7,047 bases of DNA from a plasmid, in NCBI RefSeq assembly GCF_053078305.1, contig NZ_CP166877.1. One strand, written 5' to 3'. The notes below the pieces were generated by a model. The model worked only from the letters and a program-made list of their open reading frames with translations. It searched no databases and had not been told where the DNA came from. Numbering within the stretch: position 1 is the first letter of the stretch; the number at the start of each line of letters is the position of its first letter. The position numbers were made by a program, and so were the translations under genes. Positions 5,276 through 6,667 of the stretch are shown piece by piece.

Positions 5276-5407
5276 ATGAAAATAGTGCTTTTTCTAATTA
5301 CAATATTATCCTTGTCAGGATGTCAAGCAAACTATATTCGTGATGTACAAGGAGGAACCGTTGCGCCATCTTCGTCTTCTGAACTGACGGGGATCGCGGT
5401 TCAGTAG
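5276..5407 (+). CDS. ckl: Colicin lysis (release) lipoprotein
   Basis: Not in the ORF track because it is short. Manual translation gives [43 protein letters not shown] (43 aa): signal peptide, lipobox LSG-C, and the conserved mature motif [11 protein letters not shown] typical of colicin lysis proteins. GGAGG lies just upstream. Confidence 0.85.
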
Positions 5408-5415
5408 AAAAGATC

Positions 5416-5441
5416 AAAGGATCTCTTGAGATCCTTTTTTT
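5416..5441 (+). terminator. Rho-independent terminator-like hairpin plus T-run at the end of the colicin operon
   Basis: AAAGGATCTC-TT-GAGATCCTTT inverted repeat followed by TTTTTTT, 9 nt after the lysis gene stop. The same motif occurs at the equivalent place in pMB1/pBR322. It overlaps the RNAII promoter -35. Confidence 0.5.
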
Positions 5442-5454
5442 CTGCGCGTAATCT
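5426..5454 (+). promoter_or_regulatory. RNAII (replication primer) promoter: -35 TTGAGA (5426-5431), -10 TAATCT (5449-5454)
   Basis: Matches the ColE1/pMB1 RNAII promoter context (TTGAGATCCTTTTTTTCTGCGCGTAATCTGCTGC), with a 17-bp spacer. Confidence 0.7.
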
Positions 5455-5467
5455 GCTGCCTGTAAAC

Positions 5468-5573
5468 GAAAAAACCCGCCTTGTGGCGGGTTCTTCCGTC
5501 CGATCAGAAGTCTTCGACCTCTTCTAATCGGCGGTGGTAACTGGCTATCGCAGAGCACAGGTACCTAAATTGT
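5468..5573 (-). ncRNA. RNAI antisense copy-number control RNA
   Basis: The reverse complement reads ACAAUUUAGGUACCUGUGCUCUGCGAUAGCCAGUUACC..CCGAUUAGAAGAGGUCGAAGACUUCUGAUCGG..AACCCGCCACAAGGCGGGUUUUUU. This gives three stem-loops and a terminal hairpin plus U-run, homologous in layout to pMB1 RNAI but with different stem and loop sequences. Confidence 0.8.
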
Positions 5574-5579
5574 CCTTCT

Positions 5580-5609
5580 AGTGTAGTCAAAATCAGACTG
5601 ATACTTCAA
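5580..5609 (-). promoter_or_regulatory. RNAI promoter (minus strand: -35 TTGAAG = RC of 5604-5609; -10 TACACT = RC of 5580-5585)
   Basis: Conserved with the pMB1 RNAI promoter (TTGAAG ... CTACACTAGAAGGACA) and correctly spaced from the inferred RNAI 5' end at about 5573. Confidence 0.65.
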
Positions 5610-6039
5610 GAACTCTGTTACCAACTTATAAATCTCGCTCTGCTAACCCGGTTACCAATGGCTGCTGCCAGTGGCGTTAAGTCGTGTCTTTTCCGGGTTG
5701 GACCCAAGAGAACAGTTACCGGAGAAGGCGCAGCAGTCGGGCTGAACGGGGGGTTCCTGCATACAGCCCGGCCCGGAGCGAACTGCCTAAGTCGCCCCGA
5801 GATACCAGAAGACGTGAGCTATGAGAAAGCGCCACGTGTCCCGCAAGGGAGAAAGGCGGAAAAGGTATCCGGTAATCGATATGGCGGGAACGTGGGGGCG
5901 CAGGAGGGAGCGATTCACCGGAAACGGTGATGATCTTTAAGCCACGTCGGGTTTCGCCACCGCTGGCGGATTTCATGGTTGAGCCGTAAGGCTCCCACAG
6001 ATGCACCGAAAAAGTGTCTGTTTTGTGAAGTCCGTCAGG

Positions 6040-6100
6040 GGGGCGGAGCCTATGGAAAAAGCGCCTCCGGCGCGGCCTTTTCCGGGGTTTTTGTTTTTTG
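6040..6100 (+). other. oriV: RNAII/DNA transition region of the ColE1-type origin
   Basis: GGGGGGCGGAGCCTATGGAAAAAGCGCC...GGCCTTTTCCGG is homologous to the pMB1 region containing the RNase H processing and DNA-synthesis start site. The exact switch point is not determinable from sequence alone. Confidence 0.5.
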
Positions 6101-6249
6101 CGCACATGTTCTTTCCCGGGTTATCCCCGGATTCTGTGGATAACGGGGTCACCGCCTTTGAGAAAGGAGAGTCCGCTCGCCGCAGCCGAACGACCGAGCG
6201 CAGCGAGTCAGTGAGCGAGGAAGCGGAAGAGCACCGGAAGCGGCATTTT

Positions 6250-6420
6250 CTCCTTACGCATCTGTGCGGCATTTCACACCCGACATGGCGCATTTTTCAT
6301 ACTATCTACACTGATGCCACATGATTAAGCCAGTATACACTCCGCTATCGCTACGTGACTGGGTCATGGCTGCGCCCCGACACCCGCTAAAACCCGCTGA
6401 CGCGCCCTGACGGGCTTGTC
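6250..6420 (-). other. oriT / bom region with a conserved ColE1-type nick site (minus strand CTGG|CTTA; nick between 6330 and 6329)
   Basis: TAAGCCAGTATACACTCCGCTATCGCTACGTGACTGGGTCATGGCTGCGCCCCGACACCCGC...GACGGGCTTGTCTGCTCCCGGCATCCG is near-identical to the pBR322 bom segment as recalled. The nick position is placed by homology to the ColE1 nic site as I remember it. Confidence 0.6.
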
Positions 6421-6475: not shown

Positions 6476-6667
6476 TCAGAGGTTTTCACCGTCATCCCCG
6501 AAGCGTGCGAGGCAGCTGCGGTAAAGCTCGTCGGCGTGGTCGTGAAGCGCTTCGCAGATGTCAGCCTGGTCGTCGGCGTCCAGTTCATTCAGTTTTTCCA
6601 GCAGGGTCAGCGTCTGGCTTCTGATGAAGCGGGCCATGTTAAGGGCGGTTTTTTCCTGTTTAGTCAC
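6476..6667 (-). CDS. rop: Rop/Rom (RNA one modulator; RNAI-RNAII kissing-complex stabiliser)
   Basis: 63 codons ending ...TKQEKTALNMARFIRSQTLTLLEKLNELDADDQADICEALHDHADELYRSCLARFGDDGENL, near-identical to ColE1/pBR322 Rop. The start appears to be GTG (RC of 6665-6667) at the position of the ATG in pBR322. The ORF-track entry 6476..6907 is an artefactual N-terminal extension. Confidence 0.9.
   Translation of the reverse strand: MTKQEKTALNMARFIRSQTLTLLEKLNELDADDQADICEALHDHADELYRSCLARFGDDGENL

Follow-up and report, generated by a model that had tools for sequence, protein, structure and literature searches.

The origin described here raises the question of whether some forty additional bases close to the 3′ end of a replication primer are an insertion capable of disturbing priming, or an ordinary form of an origin that is already known. 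A sequence-only reading of this locus had proposed that about 70 nt lie between two conserved blocks where pMB1 has about 30, that the primer would be about 600 nt long and not 555, and that the insertion, being located in the structures that control RNA-DNA hybrid formation, could alter the efficiency of priming. The window, that is, the whole stretch of 7,047 nucleotides that was analysed, is an entire plasmid of 7,047 bp encoding colicin K, the 731-nt origin region of which is 99.9% identical to that of NZ_CP046541.1 (E. coli pFHI_NMBU_10_02, of the same length), a plasmid annotated with colicin K, immunity and lysis genes, Rop, MobC, MbeB and MbeD. Both the plasmid and its type of origin are already in public records.

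To judge from sequence similarity, the replicon is a theta replicon of the ColE1 type (RNAI/RNAII) with RNAII on the plus strand, since RNAI is matched on the minus strand and positions 5400-6130 share a mean column identity of 85% with the ColE1 origin (745 alignment columns). The RNAI match overlaps the 5′ end of the primer transcript; an RNAII homologue extends from the P2 promoter to the origin motif GGCGGAGCCTATGGAAAAA, which is identical to that of ColE1; both a G-rich RNAII loop and, some 20 nt ahead of the origin, a C-rich tract of the template are found; and the accessory gene Rom/Rop, an optional trait of the family, is also present. The general features of the replicon are:

5426-5454, plus strand: RNAII promoter region, nearly invariant and placed by ColE1 homology, with −35 TTGAGA (5426-5431) and −10 TAATCT (5449-5454), hexamers that we take to correspond to those of the ColE1 P2 promoter.
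5462-6058, plus strand: predicted RNAII pre-primer of about 597 nt, its start placed by homology with the GCAAAC of ColE1 and its end at the A5 origin motif.
5466-5572, minus strand: RNAI antisense RNA (Rfam RF00106, 53.4 bits against a gathering score of 47, E = 6.6e-8).
6135-6143, minus strand: DnaA-box consensus TTATCCACA downstream of the origin, read from the sequence and presumably a DnaA box by comparison with the anatomy of the pBR322 origin.
6476-6667, minus strand: rom/rop gene, from the translation of the open reading frame and from the RefSeq annotation “Rop family plasmid primer RNA-binding protein” at the matching position of NZ_CP046541.1.

The start of RNAII at 5462 agrees with the RNAI 3′ end at 5466, and a consensus promoter scan made no call at the RNAII promoter (5426-5454). 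The score of RNAI is barely over the Rfam threshold, the region around its second stem-loop is 5 nt longer than in ColE1, and the loop sequences differ; these differences would fit a separate incompatibility type. Short minus-strand coding sequences annotated as “replication initiation protein” are found inside RNAII in ColE1 (L001, 784-942) and in two Klebsiella ColRNAI plasmids (L154, 439-552; L156, 404-553), and they look like annotation artefacts, because ColE1-type replication needs no plasmid initiator.

With regard to the difference in length, the motifs GGGTTTCGCCACC and GTCAGGGGGGCGGAGCC are found in the window at 5949 and 6034, leaving a spacer of 72 nt (5962-6033), and in ColE1 (NC_001371) at 1127 and 1171, leaving one of 31 nt. 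In the pairwise MAFFT alignment of both sequences, ColE1 lacks 42 nt in one gap and the window lacks 1 nt, which leaves the window 41 nt longer, and in the multiple alignment the extra bases are divided into two segments that flank a shared TTGAGC:

5968-5978, plus strand: extra segment 1, GGATTTCATGG, about 11 nt absent in ColE1, in the upper part of the middle stem's 5′ arm (multiple alignment and fold; exact boundaries ambiguous).
5985-6015, plus strand: extra segment 2, about 30-31 nt absent in ColE1 (multiple alignment and fold; exact boundaries ambiguous).

The short spacing of 31 nt is also that of the pMB1-type hairpin, ACCTCTGACTTGAGCGTCGATTTTTGTGATGCTCGTCAGGGG, seen in many vector-contaminated assemblies. 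Thus, the spacing given for pMB1 in the sequence-only reading was not wrong, the approximate figures of 70 and 30 nt agree with those measured, and the region that had been singled out (5930-6040) encloses all the extra bases, the complete hairpin domain being 5949-6051. The estimate for the primer was likewise accurate: from the promoter motif CTGCGCGTAATCT to the end of the A5 run of the origin there are 619 nt in the window and 577 nt in ColE1, so that by homology RNAII would measure about 597 nt (5462 to about 6058) compared with 555.

The structure prediction that had been suggested for RNAII places the extra bases in the branched tip of its terminal hairpin, whose parts are the following:

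5949-6051, plus strand: the last hairpin domain of RNAII, next to the origin, which folds as a three-way junction (−61.9 kcal/mol at the minimum free energy, with a z-score of −7.9).
5977-5996, plus strand: hairpin A, GG..GAGCC-GUAA-GGCUCCC, from the fold, with a conserved stem that includes a compensatory change from CG to UA.
5997-6021, plus strand: hairpin B, ACAGAUGC-ACCGAAAAA-GUGUCUGU, from the fold, with all 8 pairs kept and only one-sided GC/GU variation.

In ColE1, the equivalent stretch from GGGUUUCGCC to GGCGGAGCCU forms a single hairpin (−41.8 kcal/mol, z = −7.4), the 3′ arm of which holds the G6 tract located some 20 nt ahead of the origin. Two stems, the basal one (GGGUUUCGCC/GGCGGAGCCU) and CUG.C/G.CAG, are unchanged in the window, which has a longer middle stem (5963-5976 paired with 6025-6038) and ends in a tip branched into hairpins A and B, for which extra segment 2 supplies the 3′ half of the former and the 5′ arm and loop of the latter. 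The segments shared by the two forms switch partners: GAGCGUC pairs with GAUGCUC in ColE1, while their long-form homologues GAGCC, GUGUCUGU and GUGAAGUCC are each paired to one of the extra segments. The hairpin of the window is about 20 kcal/mol more stable than that of ColE1 (−62 vs. −42 kcal/mol), and the domain of CloDF13 adopts the same Y-shape with −54.3 kcal/mol. When the full 599-nt RNAII is folded (z-score −6.8), the domain remains intact in both the minimum-energy and the centroid structures. No Rfam family matched the segment when the covariance models were run on 5900-6100 at E values up to 1.

A fold of this kind could in principle operate in the DNA, either because the displaced non-template strand forms a hairpin that stabilises the R-loop, or because the duplex is a protein-binding site or a promoter, and the plus-strand DNA does indeed also fold as a Y (−25 kcal/mol, z = −4.0, vs. 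−18.2 for the minus strand). This fold is, however, far weaker than that of the RNA, its minimum-energy structure represents only 0.008 of the ensemble, G-U/G-T wobble pairs are numerous, and there is no promoter-like site in 5380-6200; the scan for promoters and terminators found no promoter-like sites in the extra segment, and its terminator-like hits lie elsewhere. Moreover, the opposite strand of 5949-6051 folded as RNA reaches only −38.4 kcal/mol compared with −61.9 in the RNAII sense, the fold being specific to the latter because eight of its pairs are G-U. Covariation alone does not separate DNA hairpins from RNA hairpins, and the modelled energetics would favour the RNA, so that an element acting at the level of DNA seems to us quite improbable.

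The comparison between relatives reinforces the idea of an RNA structure that has been kept. When the structure of the window was imposed on 17 distinct long-class sequences, close relatives with a mean identity of 93% and few independent events, and with the tested structure derived from one of their own members, standard pairs were formed in 98.3% of the cells, as opposed to 38-50% if the 3′ partners were slid by 1-3 columns. Four pairs present compensatory changes: columns 13/93 (C-G or U-A), columns 18/88 (four pair types, G-U, U-G, A-U and C-G), columns 20/86 (also four, G-C, A-U, U-A and G-U) and, within hairpin A, columns 36/43 (C-G or U-A). RNAalifold, to which the structure was not supplied, recovers the same three-way junction, so this fold is supported across the members of the long class. 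The two loops of the tip behave in different ways, in that the hairpin A loop shows free variation (GUAA, GCAA, GGAA, UCAC, UCAU, UUAC and 3-nt loops) and the A-rich ACCGAAAAA, which closes hairpin B as its loop, is largely conserved, more so than a neutral tip would predict. The region of this second loop, 6008-6019 (GAAAAAGTGTCT), also resembles the origin site at 6055-6066 (GAAAAAGCGCCT) in 10 of 12 positions, a likeness too short to be set against chance.

Another explanation considered was that the extra bases are an unstructured and recent insertion specific to this plasmid, in the form of the remnant of a mobile element, an assembly artefact or a coding sequence. Mechanically derived open reading frames do overlap them (5979-6143 and 6001-6324 on the plus strand, 5973-6293 on the minus strand), which would be the one point in favor of such an origin. 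Homologues of the 72-nt spacer are, however, carried by 1,073 plasmids of PLSDB, 1,068 of them covering at least 80% of the query and CloDF13 (NC_002119) among them; a metagenome scan with the flanks fixed and a spacer of 60-90 nt added 50 contigs, all of the 82-83-nt class described below; and 190 complete E. coli genomes out of 5,426 contain the segment, at 202 places, all on plasmids and with no chromosomal copy. With more than 1,000 independent plasmid records and these 50 contigs, with every inspected copy sitting in an origin, and with substitutions that track base-pairing and not codons, the distribution and the way in which the substitutions respect pairing exclude an insertion peculiar to the window, an artefact or a coding sequence, and we regard this explanation as having practically no chance of being correct. 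A mobile element or a local duplication was also discarded, as there are no flanking direct repeats and none of the 202 places in E. coli is chromosomal. The long form is instead a lineage trait, common to CloDF13 and to most Klebsiella ColRNAI plasmids, and not a new insertion.

Measured as the distance from GGGTTTCGCC to GGCGGAGCC in a scan for the origin motif across species-representative genomes, the hairpins fall into three length classes that have their basal stems in common and are distinguished solely by the tip: (i) a short class of 40-45 nt, the majority, to which ColE1, pMB1 and p15A-like origins belong, and whose tip is a 7-bp hairpin; (ii) an intermediate class of 52-57 nt, with an extended unbranched hairpin, found in contigs of Tatumella, Pantoea, Edwardsiella, Cedecea and Rosenbergiella assemblies, among others; and (iii) a long class of 82-83 nt with a branched tip, which includes the window and CloDF13, both of 83 nt. 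The assignment of the window to the long CloDF13/ColK-type tip is based on this distance together with a BLAST match of its spacer to CloDF13 with 88.7% identity. Many of the loci collected (within L004-L083) are pMB1- or p15A-type origins in non-enteric assemblies, such as those of Streptomyces, Pseudoalteromonas, Paracoccus, Hymenobacter and several MAGs, and these are most likely cloning-vector contamination. One E. coli plasmid (L158, NZ_CP147577.1, 721-821) carries a hairpin-spacer variant, 72 nt long, in which a ColE1-like RNAII body and 3′ arm (GTGATGCTC) accompany a long-class 5′ part with a degraded hairpin A (TTTGAGCCGTCCCACGATGCC) and a weaker fold (−41.5 kcal/mol, z = −3.0); its tip would be either a recombinant or a long tip in decay.

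The manner in which the long form arose is another matter. A neighbour-joining tree, of unreliable rooting, built on the 400 nt that precede the hairpin places the long class in at least two separate clades, that of the window being apart from that of CloDF13, which lies beside ColE1/pMB1. The RNAII bodies thus split the long class and its history is not simple, so that speaking of an expansion relative to pMB1 is a description and not a history. The sequences also make it evident that ColE1-type origins are mosaic and recombine at the origin. In a metagenome contig (L129, OKSA01005772.1) the stretch that starts in the RNAII body, includes the long hairpin and reaches the origin motif matches the window at 98-100%, and directly after the GGAAAAA of this motif the contig is 100% identical to ColE1, a switch of identity that implies a recombination breakpoint at the origin itself.

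As for priming, in ColE1 RNase H cuts within the run of A and Pol I then extends the primer. The persistent hybrid that precedes this step reportedly needs, according to the work of Masukata and Tomizawa in Cell in 1990, a G-rich loop of RNAII about 265 nt upstream and a C-rich tract of the template about 20 nt upstream. The corresponding elements in the window are:

5748-5753, plus strand: G6 tract in GAACGGGGGGTTC, homologous to the G-rich loop of ColE1, without any change from ColE1 to the window, and GGGGGG in most loci.
6038-6043, plus strand: G6 tract (dC6 in the template strand) some 20 nt ahead of the origin, in the 3′ arm of the lower stems of the hairpin, from the sequence and the fold.
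6056-6060, plus strand: A5 run of the origin motif, a motif identical in ColE1, CloDF13 and the window; the run is presumably the RNA-to-DNA transition, as in ColE1.

The only one of these elements whose position changes is the G-rich loop, at about −265 from the origin in ColE1 and about −308 in the window. The reading that we prefer, with a probability of about 0.78, is that the extra 41-42 nt are an expansion of the tip of the last RNAII hairpin, in which the hairpin structure is kept and the priming elements remain in place. The addition would be enclosed within a single helical domain, and because of this the 5′ and 3′ ends of the domain would stay together despite the greater distance to the G-rich loop; the elements that would drive the hybrid, namely the G-rich loop further upstream, the template's −20 dC tract and the A5 site of the RNase H/Pol I transition, are all retained; and, with these elements retained and the ends together, priming would occur as in ColE1 and CloDF13, with the tip having at most a modulatory effect. 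Such modulation could consist of a more stable hairpin sequestering the nascent rG tract and in this way freeing the dC tract of the template. What the analysis shows is the indel, its fold, the covariation and how the long form is distributed; this neutrality or modulation and the part assigned to the R-loop are what we infer. CloDF13-type origins are, furthermore, widespread and used in vectors, and so the architecture supports normal replication.

The earlier suggestion of an insertion that might alter priming is thus sustained only in part. The difference in length is real, and the region is indeed the origin-proximal RNAII hairpin containing the −20 G tract; but to present it as an insertion is weak framing, given that the long form is normal in a large sub-family that includes CloDF13, that the bases are at the tip of the hairpin, that the closing stems, the G tract and the origin motif are unchanged, and that the fold is supported by covariation.

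Some observations concern the immediate surroundings of the origin. In one locus (L157) the −20 tract is GGAGGG and the upstream loop is an unchanged GGGGGG, and in CloDF13 (L003) GGAGGG coexists with GGGGAG; a strict covariation between the G loop and the −20 tract is ruled out by L157. Where the −20 tract is GGAGGG, of the CloDF13 type, its A is matched by a U in place of C in the 5′ arm (columns 13/93), and hence it is the pairing of the tract inside the hairpin itself that is maintained. Directly after the A5 run, at 6061-6073, there is a small G+C hairpin, GCGCC-TCC-GGCGC, which the scan records as terminator-like on the minus strand, and equivalent hairpins are found in all three tip classes, in apparently compensatory forms (CGCC...GGCG or CGGC...GCCG). 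The oriV sequence has been described as identical across the family (PMC5935869).

A different possibility is that the branched tip is a module for functional tuning, acting on the rate or stability of the R-loop or binding a host factor, and in this manner adjusting the copy number or the host adaptation of CloDF13/ColK-type replicons. Several of the properties already described are in keeping with it: the structure is kept by compensatory changes, hairpin B has an A-rich loop that is for the most part invariant, the whole hairpin is some 20 kcal/mol more stable than that of ColE1, and there is a bias in the hosts, as 822 of the 1,073 spacer homologues come from Klebsiella and 181 from Escherichia, despite the similar totals of both genera (1,278 and 1,320) among the 3,235 whole-origin matches in PLSDB. 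Against this, the free variation of the loop of hairpin A (GNRA, UCAC, UUAC and 3-nt loops) indicates no specific loop contact, short, intermediate and long tips are all found in successful natural plasmids, and the host bias may simply reflect the clonal spread of a few plasmid lineages. On balance, a tuning role of this type strikes us as unlikely, if worth retaining. Equally doubtful, and carrying the same idea further, would be an exchangeable module that holds the nascent −20 rG tract, presents the A-rich loop, tunes the capture of the R-loop and sets copy number or host preference, its three classes recombining between backbones.

In summary, the tip expansion of the last RNAII hairpin is real but ordinary, a known natural variant, the terminal hairpin of the CloDF13/ColK type, within the well-understood ColE1 family. 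What it teaches is that the length of RNAII and the shape of its origin-proximal hairpin differ among standard origins, which are short in the ColE1/pMB1/p15A type and long in the CloDF13/ColK type, a difference that is useful for designing or comparing vector origins and for models of the origin, and of little importance beyond annotation. If it were true that the tip tunes the capture of the R-loop, it would offer a natural handle on the step that triggers the formation of the persistent hybrid, which a 2016 review considered still speculative (PMC5043065).

Among the known systems, the closest is CloDF13 (NC_002119), which shares with the window the 83-nt class, the three-way-junction fold and the identical origin motif, as well as a homologous stem of hairpin A, hairpin B and its A-rich loop, with the 88.7% identity given above extending over 61 nt. 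The CloDF13 origin is the “CDF” origin of laboratory vectors; its sequence has reportedly been available since the early 1980s and is said to have been compared with ColE1 at that time, by Stuitje et al. in 1980 and Selzer et al. in 1983. Among the papers searched, there was no explicit description of the branched tip or of the difference between tips. CloDF13 differs from the window in its middle stem, by compensatory changes (G.U to U.G, G-C to A-U), in the loop of hairpin A (UCAC and not GUAA), in the −20 tract (GGAGGG and not GGGGGG) and the upstream G loop (GGGGAG), and in an RNAII body that belongs to a different clade.

ColE1/pMB1, and with them pBR322 and pUC, resemble the window in the RNAI/RNAII layout, the G-rich loop, the basal stem, the G6 tract, the origin motif and the position of rom downstream of the origin, but they lack the approximately 42 nt of the tip, where they have a simple stem-loop with 62 nucleotides in the paired region in contrast to the branched domain of 103 nt, and their RNAII is of 555 nt compared with about 597 nt. 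Between both forms are the origins with an intermediate tip (L018, L063, L014, L055, L029 and L057, from the five genera mentioned above together with one MAG labelled Butyricicoccus), which share the basal stems with the window and the ACCGAAAA...TTTTGTGAA motif with the long class, but which are only 10-11 nt longer than ColE1 and form an extended, unbranched hairpin without hairpin A.
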